From Thermoanaerobaculales bacterium (GTDB lineage Bacteria; Acidobacteriota; Thermoanaerobaculia; Thermoanaerobaculales; Thermoanaerobaculaceae): a DNA stretch of 32,000 nucleotides. Under the pieces are notes generated by a model. That model did not search any database and was not told the origin of the DNA. It saw only the letters and a list, made by a program, of their open reading frames with translations. Below, in pieces: positions 11,650-26,278 of this stretch. The first letter of the stretch is position 1. Each line of letters opens with the position of its first letter. The stretch is from NCBI GenBank assembly GCA_044447965.1, contig JBIOGJ010000020.1, positions 15,538-47,537 of the forward strand, read 5' to 3'. The translations under genes and the position numbers were made by a program.

Positions 11650-12072
11650 TCACGTCCGGTATGGGCTGGGGCCGAGCTTCCTCAACTGCTCGGTCATCTC
11701 GGTGATCACCTGGGCGAAGCGCGGCCCCTCCGAGGCCGACACCCACTCCAGGCGAAAGCGCTCCGGCTCCAAGCCGAAGTCCTCCAGCATCAAAGTGATG
11801 GCATCCGCGCGAGACTTCGCACGCAGGTTTCCCTCGAGGTAATGGCAGTCCCCAGGGTGGCAGCCGCAAATGAGGACACCGTCCGCGCCCCCGGTGAGTG
11901 CGTCCACCACGAGGTTCGGGTGCACCATCCCGCTGCACTGCACCCGGATGATGCGCAGGTTGGACGGGTACTGCAGGCGTGACGTCCCCGCCAGGTCGGC
12001 TCCCGCGTACGAGCACCAGTAGCAGCAGAAGGCGATGAGAACGGGCTCATGCGGCTGGCTCATCGCGCTCAT
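11650..12072 (-). CDS. mvhD: Methyl-viologen-reducing hydrogenase delta subunit (MvhD/FlpD family, [2Fe-2S])
   Basis: VLIAFCCYWCSYAGADLAG...IIRVQCSGMV...GADGVLICGCHPGDCHY is the MvhD signature. I chose the ATG at 12072, 7 nt after the upstream stop. Confidence 0.9.
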   Translation of the reverse strand: MSAMSQPHEPVLIAFCCYWCSYAGADLAGTSRLQYPSNLRIIRVQCSGMVHPNLVVDALTGGADGVLICGCHPGDCHYLEGNLRAKSRADAITLMLEDFGLEPERFRLEWVSASEGPRFAQVITEMTEQLRKLGPSPYRT

Positions 12073-12079
12073 CGCCGCC

Positions 12080-15000
12080 TCACGCCGTCCCCTGCAGCGC
12101 CGTCTTGACCATGGCGGAGAGTTGCTCGGGGCGGAAATGCCACACGAAAATCGCCTTCTTCGGGCAGGTGGCCTGGCACGTGCCGCACCCCTTGCACACC
12201 GCATCGTCGACCCGCACGCGTTTCTTGGTCTGGCCGTTGGCCGTGTACTCGACGAGCGTGATGGCGTGGAACGGACAGGGGTCGACGCAGTAGGCGCAGC
12301 CGTCGCAGTTCTCCTCGACCACGTGCGAGTGGGTCGCTTCGAGATCGATGTGGTCCTTGGAGAGGATCGCGGCGGCCCGCGCCGACGCGGCGGCGGCCTG
12401 CACGATCGTCTCCTCGATCGACTTCGCCGAATGGGCGAGCCCGGCGACGTAAACGCCGTCGGTGGCGAAATCCACCGGGCGCAGCTTCAGGTGGGCTTCG
12501 AGGAAGAAGCCGTCCTGGTTGAGCGGGACCTTGAGGAGCTGCGCGGTTGCCTTGTTCTCCTCGTAGGGGACCGTCCCCGCCGAGAGCACGACCAGGCCCG
12601 CGTCGATGGCAAGATCCTGCTTGAGCTGCGGGTCGTGGACCGTGACGACGAGGCCGCCCTCGCCACGGGTCACGACCGGCTTGGCGTCGTCCTCGTGACG
12701 CAGGAAGACGACCCCTTGCGCTCGCGCCTTGGTGTAGAAGCTCTCCCGGAACCCGTAGGTGCGGATGTCCCGGTAGAGCACGTAGACGCTGGTGCGCCCA
12801 GAGAGCTGCTTGATCCTCAGGGCGTTCTTGACCGCCTCGGCGCAGCAGACGCGCGAGCAGTAGGGATGCTCCGCATCGCGGGAGCCGACGCACTGGATCA
12901 TGACCACCGAGGACGGCAGCCATCCGCCTCCACGCGTGACGAGGCGTTCCTCCAGCTCGAGTTGGGTCACGACCCGGTCGTCCTCGCCGTAGAGGTGCTC
13001 CTTGGGCTTGTACTCGCGGGCTCCGGTGGCGACGACGACGACGCCGTGCTCGACTCGCTCGACAGCCCCATCGTAGGCGATCGTGGTCGTGAAACTACCC
13101 ACCGACCCCTCCACCTTCTCGACGGAGGCCCCGGTGAATACCCTGATGCTCGCGCTCCCGCGCACCCGGTCGATGAGGCGGCGCAGGGCCGCCTGTGGAT
13201 CGTCGCCGTTGAAGAGATAGCGGATGCGGGTGAGGTTGCCGCCGAGCTGCGCCTCTTTCTCGACGAGTGAGACGTCGAAGCCCTGGTCGGCAAAATCGAG
13301 CGCCGAGGTCATGCCGGCGAGGCCGCCGCCGATCACGAGCGCGGACCTCCTGACCGGGGCCTCCCCGCCTTGCAGCGGCTCGAGCAGCCGCGCCTTGGCG
13401 AGCGCCATGCGAACCAGGTCCTTCGCCTTGCGCGTCGCCCGCTCGGGCTCAGAGGAGTGCACCCAGGAGCACTGGTCACGGATGTTCGCCATCTCGAACA
13501 GGTAGGGGTTGAGGCCGGCCTCGCGGCAGGTGTTGCGGAAGAGCGGCTCGTGCGTGCGCGGCGAGCAGGAGGCCACCACCACCCGGTTCAAGCCGTGCTC
13601 GCGGATTTTCCCCTTGATCCGCTCCTGCGTGTCGGTCGAGCAGGTGTACAGATTCGTCTCAGCGTGGACGACGTTGGGCAGGCTGCGCGCATACTCCGCG
13701 ACGCTCGCCACGTCCACGACGCCGGCGATGTTGGTGCCGCAGTGACAGACGAAGACCCCCACCCGCGGCCCCTGTCCCGTCACGTCCAGCTCCGGCGGGT
13801 AGACGCTCGGCGTGACGAGAGTGCCGCGGACGTCGCGTAGCAGGTTGAGGACTTTGGAGGCCGCCCCGGACGCCTGCATCACGGTCTCCGGGATGTCCTT
13901 GGGCTCGGTGAACGGGCCGCAGGCGAAGATGCCGTCGCGCGAGGACTCGACCGGCTCGAAGGTCGAGGTCTTGCAGAAGCCGAACTCGTTCAGCGCGATC
14001 CCGAATGTGCTCGCGATGTCCTGCACGTTACGGGGCGGCAACAGGCCGGTGGACAGGACGACGAGGTCGTACTCCCGCTCGGTCTTTGTGTCGTCCTCGG
14101 TCAGGTACTTGATGACGACGCTCCCCGCCGTGGCGCCCGCCTCGATGATCGGCGGTCGGCACCGGATGTATCGCACCCCTTGGGCGAGCGCTCGCTGGTA
14201 GTACGCCTCGAACCCCTTGCCGAAAGCACGGGCGTCCATGAAGAAGATGTCGGTTTCGAGCGCGCTGCCGCTGTGCTCCTTCGCAATCAGGGCCTCCTTG
14301 GTGGCGTACATGCAGCAGACCGAGGAGCACCAGTCGCGCTCGGCGTCACGCGAGCCCACGCACTGGATGAAGGCGATCCTCGTGGGCGGCTTGTGATCCG
14401 AAGGCCGGACGACGTGGCCGGAGAACGGCCCGGAAGCGGAGAGGATCCGTTCGAACTCGGCCGCGGTGATGACGTTGGGAAGCCGGCCGTAGCCGAGGTC
14501 TGGCTTGAGGCGGGCGTCGAAGAGGTCGTAGCCCGGCGCGAGGACGATCGCCCCCACCTGCAGCTCGACGGTTCGATCCACGTCGTCGAACTTGATCGCC
14601 TTGACGCCGCAGACCTGTTCGCATACGCCGCAGACGCCGTGCTGGAGGTGGACGCAGGTCGCCGGGTCGATGGCCGGACGGCTCGGCACCATCTGCGGAT
14701 ACATGATCGAGATCGCGGGCCGGTTGCTGAGTCCGCGGTTGAACTCAGACGCAATCGGGATGGGCGCGGCGGCGCTCATGGCGGGGGAGACCAGCCGCTC
14801 GGTCGGGCAGACGAAGTCGCAGGCGCGACACGTCCAGCACGCCTCGTTGTGCTTGCCGTAGGGCGGTTCGACCCGGCGCCGCGGACCGCGGCCCGAGAAG
14901 CCGACCGCGGCGCGCCCCATTCGCTCCTCGCACATTCGCACGCACAGCCCGCAGTCGATGCAGTCGTCGTCCTTCTTCGCGATGCGCGTGTCGGTCACGC

Positions 15001-15331
15001 CGAGCGACGCTGCCACCTGGCGGACCGCCGGGGCCTCGGGGCAACGGGCGAGGAGAAGCTCGGCGACGATCCGGCGCGCGCTTGCGATCCGCGGCGTGTC
15101 GGTCCTCACGACCAACCCCTCGAGCGCGGGGGACTGGCACGACGCCTGGACCGAGGTAGCCCTGCCCGGGACGTCGACCTCGACAAGACACAGGCGACAG
15201 GCGCCGTACGGCAAGAGCGCCTTGTGGTGGCAGAGGGTGGGGACCTTGATCCCGAGGCCCTCGGCCGCCTCGAGCAGCGAGGTCCCCTCGGGGACCTGAA
15301 CCGCCTGGCCGTTGATGGTCAGCGCGATCAC
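12080..15331 (-). CDS. hdrA: Multidomain flavo-FeS protein (1083 aa): NuoG/HydA-type N-terminal [2Fe-2S]+2x[4Fe-4S] module, then the C-terminal three-quarters of an HdrA, then a second complete HdrA-like unit
   Basis: - aa 1-185: LTINGQ...CHHKALLPYGACRLC (2Fe-2S), CIDCGLCVRMC, CWTCRACDFVCP.
- aa ~190-515: CVHLQHGVCGVCEQVCGVKAI, VGAIVLAPGYD, NVITAAEFERIL, IAFIQCVGSRD..CSSVCCMYATKEA, IFACGP.
- aa ~520-1083: VGVFVCHCGTNIAG...NPYLFEMANIRDQCSWVH, ALVIGGGLAGMTSALDFA, MIQCVGSRD..CSRVCC, and a C-terminal CDGCAYCVDPCP / CKGCGTCQATCP.
- The GTG start at 15331 overlaps the upstream stop (GTGA). Confidence 0.88.
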   Translation of the reverse strand: MIALTINGQAVQVPEGTSLLEAAEGLGIKVPTLCHHKALLPYGACRLCLVEVDVPGRATSVQASCQSPALEGLVVRTDTPRIASARRIVAELLLARCPEAPAVRQVAASLGVTDTRIAKKDDDCIDCGLCVRMCEERMGRAAVGFSGRGPRRRVEPPYGKHNEACWTCRACDFVCPTERLVSPAMSAAAPIPIASEFNRGLSNRPAISIMYPQMVPSRPAIDPATCVHLQHGVCGVCEQVCGVKAIKFDDVDRTVELQVGAIVLAPGYDLFDARLKPDLGYGRLPNVITAAEFERILSASGPFSGHVVRPSDHKPPTRIAFIQCVGSRDAERDWCSSVCCMYATKEALIAKEHSGSALETDIFFMDARAFGKGFEAYYQRALAQGVRYIRCRPPIIEAGATAGSVVIKYLTEDDTKTEREYDLVVLSTGLLPPRNVQDIASTFGIALNEFGFCKTSTFEPVESSRDGIFACGPFTEPKDIPETVMQASGAASKVLNLLRDVRGTLVTPSVYPPELDVTGQGPRVGVFVCHCGTNIAGVVDVASVAEYARSLPNVVHAETNLYTCSTDTQERIKGKIREHGLNRVVVASCSPRTHEPLFRNTCREAGLNPYLFEMANIRDQCSWVHSSEPERATRKAKDLVRMALAKARLLEPLQGGEAPVRRSALVIGGGLAGMTSALDFADQGFDVSLVEKEAQLGGNLTRIRYLFNGDDPQAALRRLIDRVRGSASIRVFTGASVEKVEGSVGSFTTTIAYDGAVERVEHGVVVVATGAREYKPKEHLYGEDDRVVTQLELEERLVTRGGGWLPSSVVMIQCVGSRDAEHPYCSRVCCAEAVKNALRIKQLSGRTSVYVLYRDIRTYGFRESFYTKARAQGVVFLRHEDDAKPVVTRGEGGLVVTVHDPQLKQDLAIDAGLVVLSAGTVPYEENKATAQLLKVPLNQDGFFLEAHLKLRPVDFATDGVYVAGLAHSAKSIEETIVQAAAASARAAAILSKDHIDLEATHSHVVEENCDGCAYCVDPCPFHAITLVEYTANGQTKKRVRVDDAVCKGCGTCQATCPKKAIFVWHFRPEQLSAMVKTALQGTA

Positions 15332-17271
15332 GACGGCCTCTGCGCGCGCGCCTCTTCAGCGCGTCGCGCTCGCCACTCCGCTACGGGCACCGGCTCGGGC
15401 AGCGTGACCAGCTCCTCGGCTTCCCGGCCCGAGACCTTGCGCACGGCCGCGACCTTGGGCGGGCAGACCTCCAGGCACTGGCCGCACTTGGTGCACTTGG
15501 CCTGGTCGACCACATGCACGTGCTTGGCCGATCCCCGGATCGCCTCGCTCGTGCAGGCCTTCAGGCAGAGCTGACAGCCGGGACAGAGGTCCGGGTCGAT
15601 CGTGTACTTGACGAGGCTCTTGCACGCGAGCGCCGGACAGCGCCGCTCGCGGATGTGGGCCTCGTACTCGTCGCGGAAGTAGCGCAGCGTCGAGAGAACC
15701 GGGTTGGGCAGCGTCTGGCCCAATCCGCACATCGAGGCGTCCTTCACGGCCGCCCCCAGCTCTTCGAGGAACTCGATGTCGCCCTCTCGCCCGGCGCCGC
15801 CGGTGATCCGCGTCAGCACCTCGAGCAGCGCCGCGCTCCCTTCGCGGCACGACGAGCACTTCCCGCACGACTCGTCGTTGGTGAACTGGAGGAAGTACTT
15901 GGCGATGTCCACCACGCAGGTGTCTTCATCGAGCACGATCATCCCGCCGGAGCCCATGATCGAGCCCGCCTGCTGCAGGCTCTCGTAGTCGATCGGCAGG
16001 TCCACCAAGCTGGCCGGGATGCACCCGCCGGACGGCCCGCCGGTCTGGATCGCCTTGAGTTTTCTGCCCTGCGGGATGCCACCGCCGATGTCGTACACGA
16101 TCTCGCGCAGCGTGAGGCCCATCGGGACCTCGATCAGCCCGGTGTTGGTGATCTTGCCGACCAGGGAGAAGATCTTCGTCCCCTTGCCGGTGGCGGTGCC
16201 GACGCGCGCATACGCCTCGGCCCCGCGCACGATGATGACCGGCACGTTCGCGAGCGTCTCGACGTTGTTGATGACGGTGGGCTGGCCCCAGAGGCCCGAC
16301 TGCACCGGGAACGGGGGCCGCTGGCGCGGTTCCGGGATCGCTCCCTCGATCGAGCGCAGCAGTGACGTCTCCTCGCCGCATACGAAGGCGCCCGAACCCT
16401 CGCGGATCTCGATCTCGAAGGCGAAGCTCGAGCCGAGGATGCCCGGCCCAAGCAGGCCGTTCGCGCGGGCCTGCTCGATCGCTGTCCCCAGCCGGCGGAG
16501 CGCGAGCGGGTACTCGGAGCGGACGTAGACGTACCCCTTGGCGGCGCCGATCGCGTACGCCGCGATCGTCATGCCCTCGACCACCGCGTGCGGATCGGAC
16601 TCGAGCAGGCTGCGATCCATGTACGCGCCGGGGTCGCCCTCGTCGCAGTTGCCGACGATGTATCGGGGCGTCCGCGCCTCGGCTGCGCAGGCCTTCCACT
16701 TCCGGCCGGTCGGGAAACCGGCGCCGCCACGCCCGCGGAGGCCTGCGGCGGTAATCTCCTCAACGACGTCCGAAGGCGTCATCCCGACGACGACCTTCTC
16801 GAGCGCCGCATATCCGCCGCGCCCGATGTAGTCCTCGATCCTCTCTGGGTTGATCTGGCCCGCGTTGCGAAGAACGACGGGCGTCTGCTTCCGGAAGAAC
16901 GGGATCTCGGTGTCGAGCACGTGCTGCTGTGCGACACGACCGTCGCGGACGTGCTCGGCGAAGACCTCTGCCGCCTTGGCCCCGTCGAGGTGCGCGTAGA
17001 GCACCGGAGAGACGCCGCGGATCTCGACGGTGCTGGTCGGCTCGGCGGAGCAGAGCCCGGCGCAGCCGGTGGTCACGATCTGCACGTCCGTGCGCCCGCT
17101 CTTCGCGAGCTCGGCGCAGAAGGCGTCATGCACGGACTTCGCCCCGGCCGCCAGACCGCAGGTGCCCATGTGCACGACGACCCGCGCCCGGTAGCTCGTG
17201 CCCTCGAGGCTGAGGCCCTTCCTCGCGTCCTCGCGCAGCCTGCCGAGCGCTTGCACAGTGAGCTGGGGCAC
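15328..17271 (-). CDS. nuoF: NuoF/HoxF/HydB-like NAD(H)-binding FMN subunit, with an N-terminal thioredoxin-like [2Fe-2S] domain and a C-terminal 2x[4Fe-4S] ferredoxin domain
   Basis: Motifs seen: GLRGRGGAGFPTGRKW (FMN), NCDEGDPGAYMDR, SGAFVCGEETSLL, ESCGKCSSCREG...MCGLG (N3 cluster), CPGCQLCLKACT / CTKCGQCLEVCP, and an N-terminal VVVHMGTCGLAAG...GCAGLC. I chose the GTG at 17271, 1 nt after the upstream stop with GAGGCGG upstream. The track ORF's ATG at 17373 would overlap the upstream gene by ~100 nt. Confidence 0.9.
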   Translation of the reverse strand: MPQLTVQALGRLREDARKGLSLEGTSYRARVVVHMGTCGLAAGAKSVHDAFCAELAKSGRTDVQIVTTGCAGLCSAEPTSTVEIRGVSPVLYAHLDGAKAAEVFAEHVRDGRVAQQHVLDTEIPFFRKQTPVVLRNAGQINPERIEDYIGRGGYAALEKVVVGMTPSDVVEEITAAGLRGRGGAGFPTGRKWKACAAEARTPRYIVGNCDEGDPGAYMDRSLLESDPHAVVEGMTIAAYAIGAAKGYVYVRSEYPLALRRLGTAIEQARANGLLGPGILGSSFAFEIEIREGSGAFVCGEETSLLRSIEGAIPEPRQRPPFPVQSGLWGQPTVINNVETLANVPVIIVRGAEAYARVGTATGKGTKIFSLVGKITNTGLIEVPMGLTLREIVYDIGGGIPQGRKLKAIQTGGPSGGCIPASLVDLPIDYESLQQAGSIMGSGGMIVLDEDTCVVDIAKYFLQFTNDESCGKCSSCREGSAALLEVLTRITGGAGREGDIEFLEELGAAVKDASMCGLGQTLPNPVLSTLRYFRDEYEAHIRERRCPALACKSLVKYTIDPDLCPGCQLCLKACTSEAIRGSAKHVHVVDQAKCTKCGQCLEVCPPKVAAVRKVSGREAEELVTLPEPVPVAEWRARRAEEARAQRPS

Positions 17272-17272
17272 G

Positions 17273-18172
17273 TCAGGCCGCCTCACTCTTGCGGTACCGG
17301 TCGACGATCTTCGGGATGTCCTTGGCCGCAAGTTTCCCGTAGACCTCGCTCCCGATCGCCACCGCCGGGGCAAGGCCGCAGCAACCGATGCAGCGCACCG
17401 CCTTGAGGGTGAAGAGCCGGTCGCGAGTGGTCTCGTCCACGCCGATCTCGAGGACGTCCATGAACTTCTCCATCAGCCGCTCGGAGCCCCGCACGTAGCA
17501 CGTCGTCCCCATGCAGACGCTGATTGTGTGTTTGCCGCGTGGCGTGAGGCTGAAGGCACCGTAGAACGTCGCGACGCGGTAAAGGTGGGTGAGCGGGACG
17601 CCGGTCTCCTGTGACACGAAACGCAGGACGTCCTCCGGGAAATAGTTGAAGCGGGCGTTGATCTCCTGGAGGATCGGCATGAACGGACCCTCTCGCCCCT
17701 TCCAGCGCGCCAGGATTGCCTCGACTTCTTGCCGGGCTTCGGGTGCGAGGTCGACGGGCGCGCGCTGCTCCGCGGGGATCGGCTGCACGCGGTAGCGTAC
17801 GGGGCAACTCGCCACACAGCTCCCGCAGCCGGTGCATTTGTCCTCGTCGATGTAGCGGGCTCGCTTCTTGACCGTGACGCTGAAGTTCCCCGGGCCCCCT
17901 TCGATGTGCTCCACCTCCGCGAGGGTGAGCAGCTCGATGTCCTTGTGCCGGCTCAGGTCCGCGAGTCGCGGGGCCATTGTGCACATGGCACAGTCGTTGG
18001 TCGGGAAGGTCTTGTCGAGCTGCGCCATCACCCCGCCGACGCCAGCCTTCTGCTCGACCAGGAACACCTTGATCCCCGCGGCAGCGAGGTCGAGCGCCGC
18101 TTGCATGCCGCCGATCCCCCCGCCGACGACGAGCGCCGCCCCGACCTTCTGCGCGCGGGCGACGTCACTCAT
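17273..18172 (-). CDS. Fusion protein: HdrA N-terminal FAD-binding fragment (aa 1-~125) joined to a NuoE/HoxE-type thioredoxin-like [2Fe-2S] domain (aa ~140-299)
   Basis: The HdrA part reads ALVVGGGIGGMQAALDLAAAGIKVFLVE, MAQLDKTFPTNDCAMC, GNFSVTVKKRARYIDEDKCTGCGSCVASCP. The NuoE part reads PILQEINARFNYFPEDVLRFVSQETGVPLTHLYRVATFY, SVCMGTTCYVRG, VRCIGCCGLAPA. The ATG at 18172 overlaps the upstream stop (ATGA). Confidence 0.88.
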   Translation of the reverse strand: MSDVARAQKVGAALVVGGGIGGMQAALDLAAAGIKVFLVEQKAGVGGVMAQLDKTFPTNDCAMCTMAPRLADLSRHKDIELLTLAEVEHIEGGPGNFSVTVKKRARYIDEDKCTGCGSCVASCPVRYRVQPIPAEQRAPVDLAPEARQEVEAILARWKGREGPFMPILQEINARFNYFPEDVLRFVSQETGVPLTHLYRVATFYGAFSLTPRGKHTISVCMGTTCYVRGSERLMEKFMDVLEIGVDETTRDRLFTLKAVRCIGCCGLAPAVAIGSEVYGKLAAKDIPKIVDRYRKSEAA

Positions 18173-19491
18173 GCGCGCACGGGCGCGAGGCCCGCCTCCA
18201 TTGGTACTTCCTCTCTCGCCCTCTCACGGACTGCCTGGAAGTACAGGGCAAGAGGCCGATCGATCATGTGCGCCCACTCGCCGAACGGCACCTCCACCAC
18301 GACCATCGGCACGAGGATGACGAGGTGGGCGGCGTAGGCGTAGTGAGCGGTCAGCGCCATCCCGAGCAGCCGGAGGACGTGAATCGCGATCCCGCTCACA
18401 GCCGTGAGCCACAGCAGCAGTGGAAGCGTGACCGGTCCTTCCTTCCGCGCGGTCCCGTGCCGCCGGCGGATGCGCCGGAGGATCACGTCGGTCGTGCCCC
18501 AGAGGATGAACGCGGTGGCCAAGTAGCCCAGCCACCTCTGTGGGTGATACAGGGGGTAGATCTTGTCGGTCTGGAACCGGCCCAGGAACGCCACGGTCAG
18601 GACGAACATGAGCACCGTGCCGAGCGCCATCAGCCAGTGTTTGAGCCACCGCCGCGGGACCGCCTCGGCGCTCCCCGCGTAGAGCCACCAGCCGACCACC
18701 GGCGCGCCGCGCGCCTCCGACGGGCACTTCCGCAACTGGCGGTGGGTAAGCATGTGAACCATCAGCGTCCGGGCTTCGGCGAGGAGGTGGCGCGGCGCCG
18801 GTCGTGTCCGGCCCATGGTGAGCCGATACATCCGCCAGACATGGGTGACGAGGACGATCGCCGGCAGCGCGTAGACGAGCCACGTGAAGTAAAGGATCTT
18901 CGGGAACATGTGGCCGATGCCCATGGGGGTCGCGACGAAGTCCGGAACTGACAGCCCCACCCAACGGAGGTGGTATGCGACCACCAGTGCGAGCACGACA
19001 GCCCCCACTGCCAGGAGCGACCCTAAGTGCCACGCCCGGGAGCGGAGGATTCTGGCGGATAGCCCGGTCCAGTCGTACTCCCCTGTCAGGTAGCGACGCA
19101 GCGTCCGCATCGACGCCGCCGGGTCCGCCTGGCGCGGGCATTTGAGGGAGCAGTCCCCACAATCGTGACACAGCCACGGCTCCAGGCCCGCGACGACGGC
19201 CTCGCGGAGTCCGAGGACGACGTGGCGGATGGGCTTGCGCGGGAACGTCACATCGCCGAGCGCCAACTCGCAGGCGACCGAGCAGCCGCCACAGTTGAGG
19301 CAGCTCGTGTCGAACTTCCCCAGGCGTTGAACCTCGCTGAGCAGAGAGGAGTCGACCCGCAACGGGGACCGCGCTGCAACGCCCGCCTCCAGGCGTGCGG
19401 ACGCCATCACCTGACACGAGGCGGCGTCTAGCGGCGCAGTCACGGCCCCGCGCTGGTCGCTCGACGTACCCGCAGCGTCGTCCCGCCCCAT
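18169..19491 (-). CDS. QmoC-like membrane subunit: HdrC-type 2x[4Fe-4S] domain fused to a NarI/HdrE/DsrM-like (putative di-heme b) transmembrane domain
   Basis: The N-terminal soluble part has CLNCGGCSVACE ... CHDCGDCSLKCP. About 6 hydrophobic helices follow, with conserved-looking His residues and a C-terminal VPFGEWAHM motif (the NarI-family PFxxxxH type). The start is uncertain: GTG 19554, ATG 19491 or ATG 19407. Confidence 0.75.
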   Translation of the reverse strand: MGRDDAAGTSSDQRGAVTAPLDAASCQVMASARLEAGVAARSPLRVDSSLLSEVQRLGKFDTSCLNCGGCSVACELALGDVTFPRKPIRHVVLGLREAVVAGLEPWLCHDCGDCSLKCPRQADPAASMRTLRRYLTGEYDWTGLSARILRSRAWHLGSLLAVGAVVLALVVAYHLRWVGLSVPDFVATPMGIGHMFPKILYFTWLVYALPAIVLVTHVWRMYRLTMGRTRPAPRHLLAEARTLMVHMLTHRQLRKCPSEARGAPVVGWWLYAGSAEAVPRRWLKHWLMALGTVLMFVLTVAFLGRFQTDKIYPLYHPQRWLGYLATAFILWGTTDVILRRIRRRHGTARKEGPVTLPLLLWLTAVSGIAIHVLRLLGMALTAHYAYAAHLVILVPMVVVEVPFGEWAHMIDRPLALYFQAVRERAREEVPMEAGLAPVRA

Positions 19492-19627
19492 TGCGGCGTC
19501 CCCCCAGCCACCCCGGCGGTTGGCATCCGGCCGATCCCTCCCGATACCCACCACACACAGGAAAGACCGAACAAAACGCCTGATCGAAACCTGAGACTAC
19601 TCCCCCCCGACAGGTGACCCAGTTATC

Positions 19628-19656
19628 AGAATCAACCTGCGGTACGGCGTTGTCAA
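19628..19656 (-). promoter_or_regulatory. Weak candidate sigma70-type promoter for the hydrogenase operon
   Basis: The minus strand has TTGACA (19656-19651), a 17 nt spacer, then GATTCT. It lies in the lowest-GC intergenic stretch of the window (19555-19737). The -10 element is poor. Confidence 0.25.
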
Positions 19657-19737
19657 GGGGGTGTCACGTTAAGTAAACAGAGATTGCGTTTAAATATCAT
19701 GGCACGTCGTCAAAGACCGGTACTCGCGGTTATGGCT

Positions 19738-19992
19738 TCAGGACAAGCCGGAGCGGGCGAGGCACGCGTGGCGCGAAGCCGGAAGGATTGCGAGGTGCGG
19801 CTCTAGATCGGTGTTCTCCTTGTGCCACGGCATGGCCGCCGGCCCGAACCGCGTCCCATCAGTCGGCCCGATCGCATCGACGACCTCGTCGGAAACCGCT
19901 GCAATCACCACCAAGCCGGCGCGCGCCCAAGCGGCGCCGAGCCGTTCGACTTCGAAACGCTGCTCCTGCGAATGCACAGGCAATGCGCGCGC
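19738..19992 (-). pseudogene. Internally deleted remnant of a class-I glutamine amidotransferase, paralogous to the gene at 7890-8585
   Basis: The translation is ARALPVHSQEQRFEVERLGAAWARAGLVVIAAVSDEVVDAIGPTDGTRFGPAAMPWHKENTDLEPHLAILPASRHACLARSGLS*. It aligns to the first ~26 aa (MRVLLVHSDDRPFEVERFGTAWALAG) and the last ~59 aa (GAGLVAAAIAPDGVIEAIEPAAGDRFVLGVQWHPENLTQEPHVAIFRAFRCACLGAASG*) of the intact gene. There is no start codon and the catalytic Cys region is absent. Confidence 0.7.
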
Positions 19993-20054
19993 GCCGTGAT
20001 TCTCGTGCTGCGACTCCCAGCGTTCTTCGTGGGCCAATCCCCACTCCAGGCGGG

Positions 20055-20756
20055 TCAGACGCCGAGCACGATCACGATCAGCCCCGAGCCGGCGATCACC
20101 GCCCCCGCGAGCGCGTGCGACCAGCGCTCGAACGCCGCGAGGGGGAGCCGCTTCACGCCGGAGAGCGCGAGGGAGACCAACGTCAGCATGGTCGCGATCG
20201 TGATCACCGAGAAGACCACGGCGGTGAGCGCGGCGGTCTCCCAGCGCCCACGGCTTGCCGGCAACACGAACAGCGGTATCAGCGGCTCGCACGGTCCCAG
20301 CACGAAGATCGTAAAGAGTGCCCAGAACGTCGTGCGGGAGCGGTCGACTCCCGCGTGCTCGTGGCGTTGCTCGCCTTGCGTGTGGAGATGGACATGCCCA
20401 TGATGGACGTGCGGCACGAGTCCGGTCCGCTGCCGCACCGCGTGGCGCACGCCCCAGACGGCGTACGCGAGGCCGAATGCCACGAGTGCCCAGGCGGCGA
20501 GGCCGCCGCGAGCGTTCTCGGCAGCGGTGAGGTGGGCAACTCCGAATCCAAGCGCCAATCCGACGACACCGAGCACAACCGACGAACCGACGTGCCCCAG
20601 GCCGCACAGGAACGTCACCACCAAGGTCCGCCGCTGGCTCCACCCTCGTGCCTGGGCGAGCATCACGAACGGCAGGGTGTGATCCGGCCCCAGCACGGTA
20701 TGCGTCAGCGCGATCGCCGCCGCCGCGATGAGGAGGTCGAGCGAAAAGGCGTCCAT
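20055..20756 (-). CDS. Putative nickel/cobalt transporter (HupE/UreJ- or NicO/UreH-like membrane protein) with a His-rich loop
   Basis: There are 6-7 hydrophobic helices. The first helix has the motif ALTHTVLGPDHTLPFVML (the H-x4-G-x-DH type seen in HupE/UreJ-like Ni permeases). The central loop is PHVHHGHVHLHTQGEQRHEH and there is a GPCEPLIP motif. The ATG at 20756 overlaps the hypE stop (TGATG). Confidence 0.7.
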   Translation of the reverse strand: MDAFSLDLLIAAAAIALTHTVLGPDHTLPFVMLAQARGWSQRRTLVVTFLCGLGHVGSSVVLGVVGLALGFGVAHLTAAENARGGLAAWALVAFGLAYAVWGVRHAVRQRTGLVPHVHHGHVHLHTQGEQRHEHAGVDRSRTTFWALFTIFVLGPCEPLIPLFVLPASRGRWETAALTAVVFSVITIATMLTLVSLALSGVKRLPLAAFERWSHALAGAVIAGSGLIVIVLGV

Positions 20757-21832
20757 CAGCAGATCCGCGGCAGCTCGGCGCCAGCCAGGAGATCGAGCGG
20801 CCGCTCGGTGCCGTACGGTGTGCGCAGCGCCACCGGCCCGGCATGCGGCGAACGCGCCTCGACCCGGCCGATCCGCGCGGCCCCGTTGCCCAACGTATGC
20901 GCGGCAAGCGCCGCGAGCGCCCGCTCGCCGTCGTGCTCTGCCACCCACACGAGCGCCCGTCCCTCGCACGCGACGTAGAGCGGATCGAGGCCCAACAGCT
21001 CGCACACCGCCCGCACCTGCGGCCGGACCGGGATCGCCGCGCCTTCGAGCACGATGCGGCTCCCCGATCTCGACGCCACCTCGTGGCAGGTGGTGGCGAC
21101 GCCACCGCGAGTGGGATCGTGGAGCGCGTGCACGTCGGCGCCGGAGGCGAGCAGCGCATTCACCAACGAGGCGAGCGGCGCGCAATCGGAGGCGAGCCCT
21201 TCTCCGCCGATCTGGTGCCGGCATGCCATCACGGTCGCGCCATGGTCGCCGATCGGACCGGAGACGAGTACCGCGTCGCCCGCCGTGACACGGTGATCGC
21301 CAAGGTCGCGGCCGGGCGGCACCACGCCCAGACCCGAGGTGACCACGTACGCGCGGTCGCCCTTGCCGCGCGGCACCACCTTGGTGTCTCCGGCGACGAT
21401 CGCCACGCCCGCCTCTTTCGCCGCGCGCGCGGCGCCGCGCACGAAGGTGCGCAGCAGCTCGACCTCGAGACCCTCCTCGAGCACCAGCGCCCAGGTGAGC
21501 GCATGCGGCACCGCCCCTGCCACCGCGAGATCGTTGACGGTGCCACACACCGAGAGGTAGCCAAGGTCACCGCCGGGGAACACCGGCGGGTCCACGACAA
21601 ACGCATCGGTGGTGAGCGCCACCCGGCCCGGCGGCAGCGGTTCGAGGACGGCGGAGTCGGACAGCGTCGCGAGAGCCGGGTTGGCCAGGGCGGGCAGGAA
21701 CAGCTCTCGCACCAGCTCCTGGGTCAGGCGCCCGCCGCCGCCATGGGCGAGCAGGATCCGCTCGACCGCCGCACTCCCTTGCGGCTCCGCGTCTGTGGCC
21801 TCTGATCTACCCGCGGTGCGCTTCGCCATCAC
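20756..21832 (-). CDS. hypE: Hydrogenase maturation protein HypE (carbamoyl dehydratase)
   Basis: Motifs seen: LLAHGGGG, DAFVVDPPVFPGGDLG, CGTVNDLAVAGA, and the diagnostic C-terminal PRIC. Confidence 0.93.
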   Translation of the reverse strand: MMAKRTAGRSEATDAEPQGSAAVERILLAHGGGGRLTQELVRELFLPALANPALATLSDSAVLEPLPPGRVALTTDAFVVDPPVFPGGDLGYLSVCGTVNDLAVAGAVPHALTWALVLEEGLEVELLRTFVRGAARAAKEAGVAIVAGDTKVVPRGKGDRAYVVTSGLGVVPPGRDLGDHRVTAGDAVLVSGPIGDHGATVMACRHQIGGEGLASDCAPLASLVNALLASGADVHALHDPTRGGVATTCHEVASRSGSRIVLEGAAIPVRPQVRAVCELLGLDPLYVACEGRALVWVAEHDGERALAALAAHTLGNGAARIGRVEARSPHAGPVALRTPYGTERPLDLLAGAELPRIC

Positions 21833-21844
21833 CCACCTCTCGCC

Positions 21845-22942
21845 CTAGGCCTGCACCCGCTCGTGGCGATACCAGGCGGCGCAGGTCCCCTCGCTCGATA
21901 CCATGCACGCCCCAATCGCCGTGGACGGCGTGCAGATGGTCGCGAAAAGCGGACATTCAGGCGGATCGATGCTGCCCTTGAGAACCTCGCCGCAGCGGCA
22001 ACCCTCAGGCTCCACCGGCTCCGGCACGTCCACCTCGATGCGCGACGCGTCGCGGCGGGCGAACTCGGGCCGCAGCGCAAGCCCCGATCCTGGGATCGCA
22101 CCGAGCCCACGCCACACCACGTCTGCCGGAGTGAAGAAGCGATCCACGAGCGCACGTGCGGTCGTGTTGCCCTCCGCTGTCACCACCCGCGTGTAGAGGT
22201 TGACGACCTCGGTCCGACCGTGTGCGAGCCGATCAACCAGCGCCTCGACACCGCGCAGCACATCGGTGGGGGTGAAGCCGACGACGGCCGCCGGCAGGCC
22301 GAACTCCTCGGCAACGAAGGCGAAGGCGTTCGCGCCGGTGATTACCGAGACGTGGCCAGGAAGCAAGAAACCGTCCACCTTGACCTCGGGGTCGCGGGCG
22401 AGCGCACGCATCGGCGGCGGCATGATCTTGTGCCCGGAGAGGACGTGGAAGTTCGTGACTCCATCGGCCTCGGCTTCGGCCAACGCCGCAGCCACGGTAG
22501 GCACCGTGGTCTCGAAGCCAACCCCGAGGAAGACCACGGCTTGGTCAGGGTTTTCCCGCGCGAGCTGCAACGCATCCCGCGGCGAATAGACGATGTGCAC
22601 TGCGCCGCCCTCGGCCCGCACCCGCTCGAGACTGCCCTTCGACGACGGCACCCGCACGAGGTCGCCGAACGTCGCCACGATCGTTCCCGGCCGGCGCGCG
22701 AGCGCCTCGGCGCGGTCCACGTACCCCACCGGCGTAACGCACACCGGACAACCGGGACCCGCGATCAGGCGCACCGTGGGCGGCAACAGCCGGCGCAGCC
22801 CCGCGGCGGCAATCGCGTGGGTGTGCGTGCCGCAAACCTCCATCAGAGTGACCCGTCGCGTCAACCCCTCGGCCGCACCCACGATACGGGCCACCAGCCC
22901 CTTGACCGCATGGGGATCGACAAGGGCCGCCGCAATGCTCAT
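21845..22942 (-). CDS. hypD: Hydrogenase maturation protein HypD
   Basis: Motifs seen: MEVCGTHTH, GPGCPVCVTP, GFETT, PGHVS, and a C-terminal Cys cluster (CRCGEVLKG...CPLF...C). Confidence 0.93.
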   Translation of the reverse strand: MSIAAALVDPHAVKGLVARIVGAAEGLTRRVTLMEVCGTHTHAIAAAGLRRLLPPTVRLIAGPGCPVCVTPVGYVDRAEALARRPGTIVATFGDLVRVPSSKGSLERVRAEGGAVHIVYSPRDALQLARENPDQAVVFLGVGFETTVPTVAAALAEAEADGVTNFHVLSGHKIMPPPMRALARDPEVKVDGFLLPGHVSVITGANAFAFVAEEFGLPAAVVGFTPTDVLRGVEALVDRLAHGRTEVVNLYTRVVTAEGNTTARALVDRFFTPADVVWRGLGAIPGSGLALRPEFARRDASRIEVDVPEPVEPEGCRCGEVLKGSIDPPECPLFATICTPSTAIGACMVSSEGTCAAWYRHERVQA

Positions 22943-23166
22943 GCGTCGCCGCCCGCCGCGGCCACCTGACGCAACAGCTCCAGGGTCACCTGCGCCTCGG
23001 CTTCGTCAACCACACCAATGGCGTAGCCGGCGTGGACGAGGAGATACTCGCCCAGCTTCGCCTCCGGGTGCAGCAGCAGGGAGACTTCCCGCCGCACGCC
23101 GTCCAGTTCGGCCACGCCCAACGCCTCATCGCGCTCCACCAACTTCATCGGCACCGCCAGGCACAT
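22939..23166 (-). CDS. hypC: Hydrogenase maturation chaperone HypC (75 aa)
   Basis: The N-terminus is the canonical MCLAVPMKLV. The ATG at 23166 overlaps the hypF stop and the gene's own stop overlaps the hypD ATG (ATGA). The longer track ORF (to 23343) lies inside hypF. Confidence 0.9.
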   Translation of the reverse strand: MCLAVPMKLVERDEALGVAELDGVRREVSLLLHPEAKLGEYLLVHAGYAIGVVDEAEAQVTLELLRQVAAAGGDA

Positions 23167-25610
23167 CACGCGCCTCCTTGAACCACTGTCGCTTCGCCAC
23201 CGCTCGCGAGCGCGCCCAGCACCACCTGCCCATACGCGATCCCGCCGTCGCCGGGCGGCACGCTCCACGGCATCAAGACCTCGAGACCGAGCACTGTTAG
23301 CGTTTCCCCCAATCCCTGGCGGAGGAGCCGGTTCACCAGGCACCCTCCTCCTAAGGCTACCACCGGAACACCTCGCGGGATCACCCGCTTCGTCAACTCC
23401 GCGGCGAGCCGGCTGAACGTTGCATGAAAGCTGGCAGCGACCGATGCGGCTTGCTCGCCCGCGATCACCCGTCGCGCGGCCGCCGCGAGCAGCGCAGCGG
23501 TGGGGAGGACCGTGTTCCGTTGACGCTCTCCCGTGGAGGAATCACCACCCGCCCCATGGCGATCTCCCAACTGGACCTCGTCCCACGAGGCAACCGGGCC
23601 GATCCACGCCGTCGCGAGCGATTCGAGGCGGGCCGCGGCTTCCCCTTCGTAGCCATTGGCCGCAATCAAACCGAGCAGTGCGCCCGCCGCCTCGAACACC
23701 CGCCCCGCGCCGGTCGCCATCGGCCAGCCCGGCTGTTCCGCGAGGCGCGCCACGGTGGCGATCTCCCCAGCCGACACAAGGTCGGCCACCGGGAGACGCG
23801 GCACCAGCTCGCCCGCGCCAGCGCGGACGAGGGCGCCAGCCAGCACCCGCCACGGCGCCCGCACCGCCGCCTCGCCCCCCACCAGCGGCAGCGGCTCGAG
23901 GTGCGCGAGACGCCGCCAGCCGCCATCGCCACCGAGGAGCAACCACTCGCCGCCCCAGGCGGTGCCGTCCGGTCCCCACCCGGTGCCGTCAAGGATGAGC
24001 GCGAGCGCCTGCTCGTCGCGCCGGGGAAAGCGCCCGTGTTCGGCAAGCGTGGCGGCCGCATGCGCGACGTGGTGCTGCACCCGCGTGAGGCTAACGCCGC
24101 GATCTCGCGCCAGCTCCTCGCCGAGCCACGTGCTCGGGTAGTCCGGATGGCTGTCCACCACGATGCGCGCTCCCCGCGCGTCGAGGAACTCCTCGAGCTC
24201 CGCGATCGTCTCGCGCAGGAAGGCGCGTGCTGGCTCGCTGTCGAGGTCACCGACGTGTTGGGCGAAGAACGCCTCGCGGCCTACGCCCAAGCATGCGGTG
24301 GCCTGCAGGTATGGCCCAAGCGCGAGAACCGGGACTTCGCACGCCACCGGCAGCGGCAACGCCGCCGGCACGTAGCCGCGGGCGCGCCTGACCAGCACCG
24401 ACCCGGCCTCGGTCGCGCGCGCCACCGAGTCGTCCGCGCGGCGCACGACGTCGCGGTCATGGAGCAAGAAGAGGTCGGCGATGCCCGCCAGCCGCCCCAG
24501 CGCCTCGCGGTTACCTCGACAGATCGGTTCGTCCGCGGCGTTGCCTGAGGTCATTACCAATGCCTCCAACGGCAGGCCGCGGAACAGCTCCACGTGCAGT
24601 GGCGTGGTAGGCAGCATCACGCCGAGATCGGCGAGCCCGGGCGCCACGCCGGGCGCCACCGGCGCGGAAGGACGACGTGGCGCGAGCAGCACCGGCGCCC
24701 GTGGCGAGGTCAGTAATGCCTCGTCTACCGGCGCGAGAGCGACGAAGCGGCGCGCCGTCTCCAGGTCCCGCACCATCAGCGCCAGGGGTTTGCTCGGTCG
24801 GTGCTTGCGCTCGCGCAGCCGAGCGACGGCCGCTTCGTCATCCGCGCGGCAGGCAAGTTGGAACCCACCGAACCCCTTGACCGCCACGACTGACCCGGCA
24901 ACCAGCGCGTCGCGTGCCTGCTGCAACGCCGCGGCTCCCGTCGCTATCGCGGCAGCGGGGCCAGCATCGGTCGGCGCTGCATCAACCGCGGCGGGGCCCG
25001 CACCCCGATTTTCGAGCTGCGGCCCCTGGAGCCACAGCCGCGGCCCACACGCCGGGCAGCACACCGGCTCGGCGTGGAAACGGCGGTCGGTAGGGTCCTC
25101 GTATTCGGCTTGGCATCGCGGGCAGAGTGGGAAGCACGCCATCGAGGTGCGCTCGCGGTCGTACGGGAGCGCGGTCACAAGCGTGAAGCGCGGGCCGCAG
25201 TTCGTGCAGGTGGTGAACGGGTAGCGATGGCGTCGATCGGCGGGGTTCTCCATCTCTCTCCGGCACTCGGCGCACAGCGCTGCATCCGGGGGCACCAGCG
25301 CGCGCCGCCGCGCGCCGCCTTGCGACGTCAGTACCACGAAGTCGTGCTCGCCTTGCGGCGTCACCTCGTGAGTCGCGAGCTCCGCGAGGCTTGCGAGTGG
25401 CGGCAGCGAGAGCGGCAGCTCCCGCCGGAACGCTTGCACCTGCGCGAGCGGACCCTCGACTTCGATCACCACGCCGTCGGGGTCGTTGCGCACGAAGCCA
25501 CCGAGGCCCAACGAGCTGGCCAGCCGGTGCACCGTCGGCCGGAACCCCACGCCCTGCACCACCCCGCGACACACCAGCCGCAGCCGCGCTGGTTGGGCAG
25601 GCTCGCTCAC
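23166..25610 (-). CDS. hypF: Carbamoyltransferase HypF
   Basis: It has an acylphosphatase domain (VQGVGFRPTVHRLA), two Zn-finger pairs (CAECRREM...CTNCGPRF; CPRCQAEY...CPACGPRL), and YrdC-like and Kae1-like regions. I chose the GTG at 25610, which overlaps the hypB stop (GTGA). ATG 25658 is an alternative. Confidence 0.92.
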   Translation of the reverse strand: MSEPAQPARLRLVCRGVVQGVGFRPTVHRLASSLGLGGFVRNDPDGVVIEVEGPLAQVQAFRRELPLSLPPLASLAELATHEVTPQGEHDFVVLTSQGGARRRALVPPDAALCAECRREMENPADRRHRYPFTTCTNCGPRFTLVTALPYDRERTSMACFPLCPRCQAEYEDPTDRRFHAEPVCCPACGPRLWLQGPQLENRGAGPAAVDAAPTDAGPAAAIATGAAALQQARDALVAGSVVAVKGFGGFQLACRADDEAAVARLRERKHRPSKPLALMVRDLETARRFVALAPVDEALLTSPRAPVLLAPRRPSAPVAPGVAPGLADLGVMLPTTPLHVELFRGLPLEALVMTSGNAADEPICRGNREALGRLAGIADLFLLHDRDVVRRADDSVARATEAGSVLVRRARGYVPAALPLPVACEVPVLALGPYLQATACLGVGREAFFAQHVGDLDSEPARAFLRETIAELEEFLDARGARIVVDSHPDYPSTWLGEELARDRGVSLTRVQHHVAHAAATLAEHGRFPRRDEQALALILDGTGWGPDGTAWGGEWLLLGGDGGWRRLAHLEPLPLVGGEAAVRAPWRVLAGALVRAGAGELVPRLPVADLVSAGEIATVARLAEQPGWPMATGAGRVFEAAGALLGLIAANGYEGEAAARLESLATAWIGPVASWDEVQLGDRHGAGGDSSTGERQRNTVLPTAALLAAAARRVIAGEQAASVAASFHATFSRLAAELTKRVIPRGVPVVALGGGCLVNRLLRQGLGETLTVLGLEVLMPWSVPPGDGGIAYGQVVLGALASGGEATVVQGGA

Positions 25611-26278
25611 CCCGACGCCTTCAGCTTCGCGCGCCACCGCGCCTCGAGCAGGGCGCACCAGTCGGCAACGCCCTCCCCGCTGCGCGCCGAGGTGAGCAGC
25701 AGCGTGCCAGAGGGGTTGAGCGCGACCACTTGCCCGCGCACCGCATCGAGGTCAAAGCTGACGTGGGGCAGAAGATCGACCTTGCTGATCACCGCGACCT
25801 CGGCGCGGGCGAAGATCCCCGGATACTTGAACGGCTTGTCGTCGCCCTCGGTGACGGAGAGGAGCACCACCTTGAAGTCCTCGCCAAGGTCGTACGCGGT
25901 CGGGCAGATGAGGTTGCCGACGTTCTCAACGAACAGTACGTCGAGCGCCGGGAAGCGCGCCTCCTCGACCGCCTTGCGCACCTGTCGCGCGTCGAGATGG
26001 CAGGCGCCGCCGGTGAGGATTTGGACCGCCGGGATGGCGAGACGGCGCAGCCGCTCCGCATCGCGCTCGGTAGCGATATCGCCCTCAATTCCCCCGAGGC
26101 GGAGGCGACCCGCCAACGCGGCCACCGTGGCCTCGAGCAGCGTGGTCTTGCCCGAGCCAGGCGAGGAGATGAGGTTGACGACCAACGTGCCGGAGGCGGC
26201 AAAGCCCCGCCGCAGCTCTGCGGCCGCTTCCTCATTTGCCGCCAGCACCCGCGCGCGGACATCCACGACTTCAGCCAT
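25607..26278 (-). CDS. hypB: Hydrogenase nickel-incorporation GTPase HypB
   Basis: Motifs seen: SSPGSGKTTLL (P-loop), GGACHLDA (CH metal site), ENVGNLICP, ISKVDL. I chose the ATG at 26278 (MAEVVDV), which overlaps the hypA 3' end by 8 nt. Confidence 0.9.
   Translation of the reverse strand: MAEVVDVRARVLAANEEAAAELRRGFAASGTLVVNLISSPGSGKTTLLEATVAALAGRLRLGGIEGDIATERDAERLRRLAIPAVQILTGGACHLDARQVRKAVEEARFPALDVLFVENVGNLICPTAYDLGEDFKVVLLSVTEGDDKPFKYPGIFARAEVAVISKVDLLPHVSFDLDAVRGQVVALNPSGTLLLTSARSGEGVADWCALLEARWRAKLKASG

Follow-up and report, generated by a model that had tools for sequence, protein, structure and literature searches.

An operon that ends in the genes for a group 3c-type [NiFe] hydrogenase, located in the 32,000-nucleotide stretch of Thermoanaerobaculales DNA analyzed here (contig JBIOGJ010000020.1; hereafter, the window), begins with a gene for a QmoC-like membrane protein (minus strand, positions 18169 to 19491; 440 amino acids, aa), as domain and PDB matches show and as an earlier note on this DNA had claimed. 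In this protein, an HdrC-like domain carrying two [4Fe-4S] cluster motifs is fused to a six-helix membrane domain of the NarI/HdrE type. Very likely, it is a redox-active iron-sulfur (FeS)/cytochrome-b membrane subunit that is functionally tied to the HdrA/Mvh gene set. We further propose, with a probability that we put at roughly 0.65, that quinone is the high-potential partner that replaces HdrBC, and that it is reached via the QmoC-like subunit of an HdrA/Mvh complex. We infer from the comparisons described below which hemes and clusters are present, that the subunits associate physically, that quinone is the substrate, that electrons are bifurcated and in which direction they flow. Group 3 [NiFe] hydrogenases are classed as soluble cytoplasmic enzymes, and a link to heterodisulfide reductase is the defining feature of group 3c. 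Coenzymes M and B, as well as HdrBC, are missing from many bacteria that carry group 3c enzymes. A translationally coupled, conserved QmoC-like subunit offers a candidate for the high-potential partner of these bacterial enzymes, namely, the quinone pool.

The earlier note had placed the gene at 18169-19554 without stating the strand. The open reading frame (ORF) listing contains this interval as a maximal ORF of 461 codons from GTG 19554 on the minus strand, and its plus-strand translation has many stops. The ORF as such is thus present, but its 5' end is about 63 nt too long. The true start is probably ATG 19491, because the called protein in the public data (P0001; 100% identical to the target) consists of 440 aa, the closest homologues are 431 to 441 aa long, and a G-rich run that resembles a Shine-Dalgarno sequence, GGGGGGA, is located 7 nt 5' of this ATG. 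A further candidate ATG lies at 19407; all residue numbers given here count from this internal methionine (M50 of the maximal ORF), the form on which the alignments were built. At the other end of the gene, the stop codon TGA (18171-18169) overlaps the ATG (18172-18170) of the following HdrA(N)-NuoE gene in the string GCGC-ATGA-GTGA, in agreement with the overlap previously described. A scan of 900 nt of upstream sequence (19300-20200) for promoters and terminators detected nothing, and Rfam reported no riboswitch and no other match in the region upstream of the gene.

The two cluster motifs of the HdrC type that had been recognized by eye in the N-terminal part are both present: CLNCGGCSVACE (codons 19302-19267) follows the pattern CxxCxxCxxxC(E), the trailing proline being replaced by glutamate, and CHDCGDCSLKCP (codons 19170-19135) follows CxxCxxCxxxCP. 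Together they make up the HdrC-like domain (19135-19302, minus strand), to which the Pfam matches of the target are confined, all of them to 4Fe-4S dicluster families (Fer4_8/Fer4_17). Solved HdrC chains of methanogen HdrABC complexes match this domain as well, with E 1e-5 for both 7bkb_C and 5odc_C when the target was used as a single sequence, and with E 1.2e-12 and 1e-10, respectively, when the family profile was used. The EtfD chain 9ojn_A reached E 0.03 with the family profile, over the FeS motif alone; the sequence and profile searches of the PDB retrieved HdrC-like and other FeS domains only, and the membrane part had no match in these searches. All eight cluster cysteines are invariant among 87 sequences that comprise the close clade of the target and distant representatives from an exhaustive search, including a true QmoC (P0197).

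Among the NCBIfam models, the best match of the target is qmoC (NF038018), which aligns over positions 7-360 of its 360 positions (E 8.3e-40, 137.3 bits), in accord with the QmoC-like combination of HdrC and HdrE domains proposed in the earlier note; weaker matches were obtained for HdrC and TcuB (E 2e-4). This family assignment, the HdrC/QmoC names given by JGI to some of the homologues, and the occurrence of sulfate reducers in some of the host lineages (Ca. Sulfotelmatobacter and some Gemmatimonadota; PMC11316326) might be taken to indicate a genuine QmoC, the component of QmoABC that serves APS (adenylylsulfate) reductase in dissimilatory sulfate reduction. That reading is close to excluded. 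The score of the target is below the equivalog cut-off of 300 bits of the model, whereas the true QmoC used as a positive control scored 350.8 bits. QmoC is encoded in qmoABC, typically beside aprBA, and at the locus of this control the genes are arranged as qmoA-qmoB-qmoC, with qmoC last, whereas the target gene comes first and is followed by NuoEF, HdrA and Mvh genes. Furthermore, no aprAB, sat or dsr genes were found among the ORFs read in the window, and the family is common in lineages named Acidobacteriaceae/Terriglobales. The target fails as a QmoC orthologue on score, gene order and partners; judged by sequence, the protein is a relative of QmoC within the QmoC/TcuB superfamily, and it would function in the manner of a QmoC- or HdrE-type subunit.

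The membrane domain (residues 124-375; 18283-19038, minus strand) contains six transmembrane (TM) helices, at residues 124-149, 164-198, 253-274, 289-315, 327-347 and 351-375, according to both a Kyte-Doolittle scan and an AlphaFold2 model (pLDDT 81, pTM 0.81), which matches the earlier estimate of about six; an amphipathic helix at the C-terminus is also predicted. Lysine and arginine are abundant in loops 2-3 and 4-5 and almost missing from loops 1-2 and 5-6. Because of this positive-inside distribution, the N-terminus is assigned to the inside and the FeS domain to the cytoplasm. The 87-sequence profile of the membrane domain was compared, using hhalign, with the sequence of Escherichia coli NarI, verified against chain C of 1Q16. 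The alignment extends over 185 columns, with a P value of 2.3e-4 and a score of 33.5, compared to scores of 10.9 to 19.8 for 16 reversed or block-shuffled NarI controls; the stated probability is 44%, with a single sequence as the template. By this profile comparison, the membrane domain is homologous to NarI beyond TM composition.

In NarI, the proximal heme is held by H56 and H205, and the distal heme by H66 and H187. In the profile alignment, H257 and H380 of the target correspond to the proximal pair, H56 and H205, respectively, and H361 (codon 18327-18325) corresponds to the distal ligand H187; H257 is encoded at 18639-18637. These three histidines are conserved in 86 to 87 of the 87 sequences, including the true QmoC. 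H380 (18270-18268) is part of the C-terminal motif V-P-F-G-E-W-A-H-M-I (18262-18291, minus strand), which is kept among the homologues as PFG.W.H and in which PFGEWAH pairs with PFSRLIH of NarI; the likeness of the VPFGEWAHM ending to the NarI family that had been suggested from inspection is borne out accordingly. H166 (18912-18910), located where TM2 begins on the periplasmic side, occurs in every sequence of the clade (36/36), and 44 of 51 distant relatives have a histidine in this segment, mostly within F-x-P-x-x-(V/I)-H. We propose this residue, from its position and conservation and not from the alignment, as the putative second ligand of the distal heme. The multiple histidines previously seen in the hydrophobic half of the protein are thus real, and three to four of them are invariant across the family.

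A narrower profile built from the 36 sequences of the clade gave a probability of 2% against NarI and aligned only the RYLTxQYDWTG linker with the W-L-R-Y-D-Y-G-Q-Y-T-W loop of NarI. The register that equates TM1 with NarI TM2, and thereby H127 with H56, was rejected as a heme-ligand register because H127 is not conserved.

Three further histidines, H146 (18970-18968), H343 (18379-18377) and H355 (18345-18343; all minus strand), are located close to the periplasmic face and show little or no variation within the clade. They are mostly missing in distant QmoC-like relatives, and none is present in true QmoC. Conversely, C228 in the cytoplasmic loop between TM2 and TM3 (18726-18724, minus strand) is retained in 85 of 87 superfamily members. 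These residues may mark a quinone/proton site or an extra cofactor. The three histidines have no assigned role, and a quinone-binding motif is not definable from sequence, both of which would leave room for a passive membrane tether or for a conduit to some non-quinone redox partner in the membrane or the periplasm, with no quinone chemistry involved. We consider such a function highly improbable: the strict conservation of the eight cluster cysteines and of the heme-ligand histidines argues for a redox role, no genes for a cytochrome c or a periplasmic partner are conserved in the neighborhoods examined, and the characterized relatives all exchange electrons with quinones or methanophenazine.

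The genes from the QmoC-like gene through the hydrogenase protease are tightly packed on the same strand, with overlapping or nearly adjacent stops and starts. The second gene (17273-18172, minus strand, as are all those that follow) encodes a fusion of an N-terminal FAD (flavin adenine dinucleotide)-binding fragment of HdrA with a NuoE/HoxE-type [2Fe-2S] domain (Pfam 2Fe-2S_thioredx; NCBIfam HdrA2, positions 141-257, and HoxE/NuoE). Next comes a flavoprotein of the NuoF/HydB type, that is, a Bfu 'B' subunit (15328-17271, with GTG 17271 as the start candidate; Pfam, NCBIfam and PDB matches). Its best PDB matches are B subunits of bifurcating enzymes (9bov_B, 8oh5_B, 7t2r_B, 7q4v_B and 9n5u_B; E 1e-205 to 1e-222), with 690 to 740 bits over residues 65-638, and the relatives include NiFe-HydABCSL, HydABC and NfnABC. 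By domain matches, the components of a Bfu-type core are present, namely, a NuoE-like subunit and a NuoF that is extended by a [2Fe-2S] domain at its N-terminus and by a 2x[4Fe-4S] domain at its C-terminus. The third partner is a fusion of 1083 aa (12080-15331; Pfam, NCBIfam and PDB matches), in which the N-terminal FeS domain of NuoG/HydA comes first, then what remains of the split HdrA, and finally a second HdrA unit, this one complete. It aligns with the HdrA chain 5odc_A in three stretches, the best of which joins residues 521-751 to HdrA 3-234, and with 9sfi_A best over residues 184-396, joined to HdrA 251-460. Across the three genes (12080-18172), HdrA is therefore both split and duplicated, with about residues 141-257 placed before NuoE, the remainder behind the NuoG-type N-terminus and the complete copy after that; this layout recalls the QmoA/QmoB pair or an HdrA dimer inside one complex.

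The remaining genes of the operon encode MvhD, the [2Fe-2S] adaptor between the hydrogenase and HdrA (11650-12072; Pfam FlpD, E 2e-53; NCBIfam VhuD), the MvhG-type small subunit of the [NiFe] hydrogenase (10645-11568; Pfam Oxidored_q6; NCBIfam VhuG, 248 bits), its group 3c-like large subunit (9199-10641; NCBIfam VhuA, 445 bits) and a hydrogenase maturation endopeptidase of the HycI family (8618-9157, start approximate; Pfam HycI, E 2.5e-23). VhuA, VhuG and VhuD are the best NCBIfam models for the respective proteins, yet the scores are below their methanogen-specific cut-offs. The large subunit contains RICGVCPWSH and DPCFSCATH, the N- and C-terminal CxxC motifs that supply the Ni-Fe ligands, and has its best PDB match in MvhA (9sw2_F, 430 bits), followed by HydABCSL (410) and HoxH (373). 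No twin-arginine (Tat) signal is apparent at the N-terminus of MvhG (MGVRLAEEW...). No HdrB or CCG domain was found among the operon proteins by Pfam, nor in the window by an approximate regular expression for the CCG signature, in accord with the suggestion that the QmoC-like protein occupies the place of HdrBC.

The region directly upstream of the operon (20055-26335, minus strand) contains hypB, hypF, (hypC), hypD and hypE, in the same order as at a related Gemmatimonadota locus, L001. The hyp genes are followed by a DsbD_2-family membrane protein, encoded within ORF 21548-20055, that is possibly a Ni/Co transporter, and about 450 to 500 nt of apparently non-coding DNA (19555-20054) separate this ORF from the QmoC-like gene.

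Relatives of the QmoC-like protein are numerous. A word-indexed search retrieved more than 1000, 1145 came from an exhaustive comparison with representatives clustered at 50% identity (E up to 1e-3), and a scan of one genome per species identified at least 545 loci that encode them. The closest relatives, with 72% identity, come from metagenome-assembled genomes (MAGs) of Gemmatimonadota; other carriers belong to Acidobacteriota (Terriglobales/Acidobacteriaceae, Ca. Sulfotelmatobacter, Bryobacterales), Bacteroidota/Ignavibacteriota (Melioribacter), Myxococcota and Desulfobacterota. Gene neighborhoods were counted by tblastn with the window proteins against the best 79 of these at least 545 loci. 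An HdrA gene starts less than 150 nt after the QmoC-like gene in all 76 loci that have downstream DNA. For 48 loci, no less than 9 kb of sequence was available on either side (full-flank loci); within 10 kb, HdrA was found in 48 of them, MvhD in 46 and MvhA/G in 45. The approximate CCG signature was detected in one of the 79 related loci.

Two architectures account for most of the loci: the NuoEF type, as in the window (24 loci), and the HdrL type (53 loci), in which the QmoC-like gene is followed by genes for a GltD-HdrA fusion of about 1490 aa and MvhD, with mvhGA nearby. The genome paper on Desulfobacterium autotrophicum (PMC2702500) calls this GltD-HdrA fusion 'HdrL'. Both architectures combine the hydrogenase and the QmoC-like membrane protein with HdrA, MvhD and a module that binds NAD(P)H, and the gene linkage holds for both of them and in several phyla. 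On the Gemmatimonadota MAG contig CAMTWA010000003.1 (L001, the same as L006; 3434-21296), the two architectures stand in tandem, with two QmoC-like paralogues and a single mvhGA: the order QmoC-like, HdrL, MvhD and an ORF of 67 aa is followed by QmoC-like, HdrA(N)-NuoE, a NuoF/GltD fusion, NuoG-HdrA, MvhD, the 67-aa ORF, MvhG and MvhA. Two membrane-anchored flavoprotein modules may share one hydrogenase here. The conserved 67-aa ORF behind MvhD is absent from the window. In a Bacteroidota MAG (L004, the same as L009; 12074-17151), genes for CBS+HATPase_c, DRTGG, PHP and HATPase_c proteins and two ORFs of 127 aa are inserted between NuoE/NuoF and NuoG-HdrA; regulatory-looking inserts of this kind occur in NuoEF-type clusters of other phyla and resemble the accessory genes of many HydABC operons.

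Several results weigh against the quinone-linked role that we propose for the QmoC-like subunit. Besides the score below the qmoC cut-off, the target has no match to Pfam Nitrate_red_gam (PF02665) at E up to 1. The search against family models that the earlier note had recommended hence came out in part as anticipated, with matches to qmoC and HdrC but not to the NarI family, although 9 of 36 close homologues pass Nitrate_red_gam, with 24 to 28 bits compared to the gathering score of 22.9. The mapping of histidines onto the NarI heme ligands likewise stands for three of the four, H66 being aligned with T271 and not with a histidine. In a Foldseek comparison of the AlphaFold2 model with the PDB, neither NarI (probability 0.35 to 0.54, E 0.6 to 1.4, TM-score about 0.3) nor HdrC (probability about 1, E 0.2 to 0.9) was a significant match. 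Finally, in HdrL-type loci, mvhGA lies about 3 kb upstream of the QmoC-like gene, with a protease gene and a small ORF in between, so the hydrogenase genes there may form a separate transcription unit.

This last observation touches on the possibility that the QmoC-like protein pairs with the HdrA/NAD(P)H module alone, in a Qmo-like NAD(P)H:quinone (or quinol:NAD(P)+ or unknown-acceptor) oxidoreductase, with the hydrogenase being a separate, merely co-located enzyme. Such an arrangement would be in line with the tightest linkage being that to HdrA, which is immediately downstream in 76 of 76 loci, and with the three full-flank loci that show no hydrogenase within 10 kb. We nevertheless judge it improbable. 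MvhD, the dedicated adaptor between MvhAG and HdrA, is nearly as constant as HdrA itself in the full-flank loci; the three loci that show no hydrogenase are long NuoEF-type clusters into which regulatory genes have been inserted, comparable to the Bacteroidota locus described above, and their ends are probably located beyond the flank; and in the window all these genes belong to one tight same-strand array.

The mechanism that we propose for the quinone-linked complex takes the methanogen enzyme as its reference. In MvhAGD-HdrABC (5ODC and later structures), electrons from H2 reach the bifurcating FAD of HdrA through MvhD. The high-potential branch exits via the two clusters of HdrC to HdrB, and the low-potential branch via the ferredoxin-like clusters of HdrA. 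The cytoplasmic HdrC-like domain of the target, with its two [4Fe-4S] clusters, would dock on HdrA as HdrC does in HdrABC, but would pass the electrons to two b-type hemes in its own six-helix domain and not to HdrB. H257 and H380 would bind the proximal heme, H361 and H166 the distal one, and the hemes would exchange electrons with the quinone pool in the membrane. With the HdrC homologue joined to a di-heme domain of the NarI type and with no HdrB present, a high-potential branch that ends in the quinone pool appears to be the most economical arrangement. The flavin or flavins of HdrA would thus couple three redox partners. H2/H+ would react at MvhAG and be connected through MvhD, the QmoC-like subunit would handle quinone/quinol, and the NuoEF/Bfu module would serve NAD(P)H and possibly ferredoxin; in HdrL-type loci, a GltD-like module would stand in its place. 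Quinone would assume the high-potential role that the heterodisulfide plays in methanogens. There may be two sites of bifurcation, the HdrA units and the Bfu-type core, by analogy with what has been proposed for Bam-Bfu (PMC9304861).

The direction of the electron flow is not readable from sequence. The standard potentials are -320 mV for NAD(P)H, -414 mV for H+/H2 and -74 mV for menaquinone. By these values, NAD(P)H could feasibly bifurcate to H+/H2 and menaquinone, and trace H2 (E' well above -300 mV) could feasibly bifurcate to NAD(P)+ and quinone. The principal alternative is the same complex running in reverse, such that the subunit acts as a quinol oxidase in the manner of NarI, HdrE or QmoC. 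Menaquinol would be oxidized at the periplasmic face, and proton-motive force would be generated. Its electrons would either evolve H2 or be confurcated at HdrA with a low-potential donor (reduced ferredoxin or H2), so that NAD(P)+ is reduced. We regard this as rather unlikely. TcuB transfers electrons from a cytoplasmic flavoprotein to quinone, and in the EtfD structure, the path leads from a cytoplasmic flavoprotein via FeS clusters and heme b to menaquinone (PMC13083937), so the same fold also operates in the quinone-reducing direction. By contrast, NarI, HdrE, DsrM and QmoC are described as quinol oxidizers (in part in PMC3333476 and PMC9012536), which counts against quinone reduction as the direction here; the quinone reduction implied by the high-potential acceptor of the earlier note is accordingly one of two possibilities, given that most characterized NarI-type subunits oxidize quinol. 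Moreover, H146, H343 and H355 are grouped close to the periplasmic side of the membrane, which is where quinol binds in NarI, and Bfu/HdrA modules are described as reversible by nature (PMC9304861). The energetics, by our own reasoning, speak against the reversal: menaquinol (-74 mV) and H2 (-414 mV) average about -244 mV, which is too positive for NAD+ (-320 mV) without an additional driving force.

Extending the proposed quinone linkage beyond the window leads to a more tentative generalization. It is conceivable, if somewhat doubtful, that bacterial 'group 3c' [NiFe] hydrogenases without HdrBC are a widespread, unrecognized membrane-anchored class, in which HdrA (and possibly Bfu) modules bifurcate or confurcate electrons among H2/H+, NAD(P)H with or without ferredoxin, and quinone via a QmoC-like FeS/di-heme subunit. 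The putative QmoC-like hydrogenase subunit is widespread and has been overlooked in annotation. The carriers include lineages that are abundant in peat and soil (Acidobacteriaceae/Terriglobales and Gemmatimonadota) and in sediments (Ignavibacteriota and Desulfobacterota), and the proposed quinone link therefore bears on H2 cycling in these habitats. If the proposal is correct, soil and sediment bacteria could obtain NAD(P)H from H2 at low pressure, or could get rid of NAD(P)H by releasing H2, quinone providing the thermodynamic leverage, and a quinone-linked member would be added to the HdrA and Bfu families of electron-bifurcating enzymes.

The full-text literature searched for QmoC, HdrL, Mvh, Bfu and group 3c contained no account of a subunit of the QmoC-like or cytochrome-b kind within the gene cluster of an Mvh/HdrA hydrogenase, although an earlier mention is possible. 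In the genome of 'Ca. Symbiobacter mobilis', Mvh proteins (Cenrod_2144, 2145 and 2148) and an HdrA with an NADH domain (2147) have been reported; the lack of HdrBC was noted there and soluble confurcation was proposed, with Cenrod_2146 left unmentioned (PMC4053972). From the gene order, Cenrod_2146 may be the same protein as the target. A survey of marine Gemmatimonadota stated that MvhADG 'links with HdrABC' (PMC11316326). The parts of the system are thus known, whereas the combination is not, and neither is the membrane/quinone link that it would imply for many bacterial 'group 3c' hydrogenases.

Elsewhere in the window, a gene for the alpha subunit of a selenocysteine-containing formate dehydrogenase (...ALDNQARV-U-HGPTVAGL...; 1-2329, minus strand) runs off the left edge. 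An Rfam SECIS_3 match at 1869-1927 (81 bits, E 6e-18) covers its in-frame TGA/UGA codon (1924-1922). A tRNA-Pro gene (anticodon GGG; 2747-2823, minus strand) lies between the formate dehydrogenase gene and the next gene.

Among the known systems, QmoC (NF038018) is the closest in architecture, with the same combination of an HdrC-like 2x[4Fe-4S] domain and a six-helix HdrE/NarI-like cytochrome-b domain, a full-length alignment, the eight cysteines, C228 and H257/H361/H380 in common, and HdrA-family flavoprotein partners along with an MvhD-type module. However, the target is only about 29% identical to P0197 and is encoded first, whereas QmoC is encoded last; it is accompanied by a NuoEF(Bfu) or GltD module, HdrA, MvhD and MvhAG instead of QmoAB/AprAB; and its clade has the extra invariant H146, H343 and H355. 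Of the two hemes b, the two FeS clusters and the reactivity with menaquinol analogues that characterize QmoC, the counterpart visible in the target is the set of conserved ligands. The methanogen MvhAGD-HdrABC complex (5ODC) shares MvhA, MvhG, MvhD, HdrA and the HdrC-like domain, all of which match solved subunits, and the logic is likely to be alike, in that MvhD would deliver the electrons of H2 to the HdrA flavin and HdrC-type clusters would carry the high-potential branch. The operon in the window differs in the lack of HdrB/CCG, in the fusion of the HdrC-like domain to a membrane cytochrome b, in the additional NAD(P)H module and in the splitting and duplication of HdrA within fusions. 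Because there is no HdrB/CCG subunit, the complex would have no heterodisulfide site.

HdrDE, DsrMK and NarGHI resemble the proposed complex in the NarI-type membrane domain, with histidines at the positions of NarI H56, H187 and H205 and a PF(S/G)xxxH motif, and in a cytoplasmic FeS partner that feeds or drains the proximal heme. In the target, however, a single polypeptide holds both the membrane domain and the FeS domain, the latter being of the HdrC type and not of the HdrD/NarH type, and compared to NarI, there are six helices instead of five and no histidine at H66, the candidate distal ligand being at the start of TM2. TcuB and mycobacterial EtfD, although only marginally similar in sequence, are likewise FeS/heme-b proteins of the membrane, through which electrons from a cytoplasmic flavoprotein reach and reduce quinone; their partners are TcuA and ETF, respectively, and EtfD has one heme and CCG domains. 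Finally, Bam-Bfu (the class II benzoyl-CoA reductase BamB-I) and Bfu enzymes such as NiFe-HydABCSL share the NuoEFG-like Bfu core and the HdrA module, and for the high-potential electron of Bam, the proposed destination is 'presumably ... to the quinone pool' (PMC9304861). As far as the passages of that source containing the searched terms are concerned, it covers Bam, Mbh and Nuo-type Bfu enzymes and not the combination of Mvh with a membrane subunit. Unlike Bam-Bfu, the system in the window has a group 3c [NiFe] hydrogenase, joined via MvhD, as its catalytic module, and its operon includes a dedicated membrane subunit of the quinone type.

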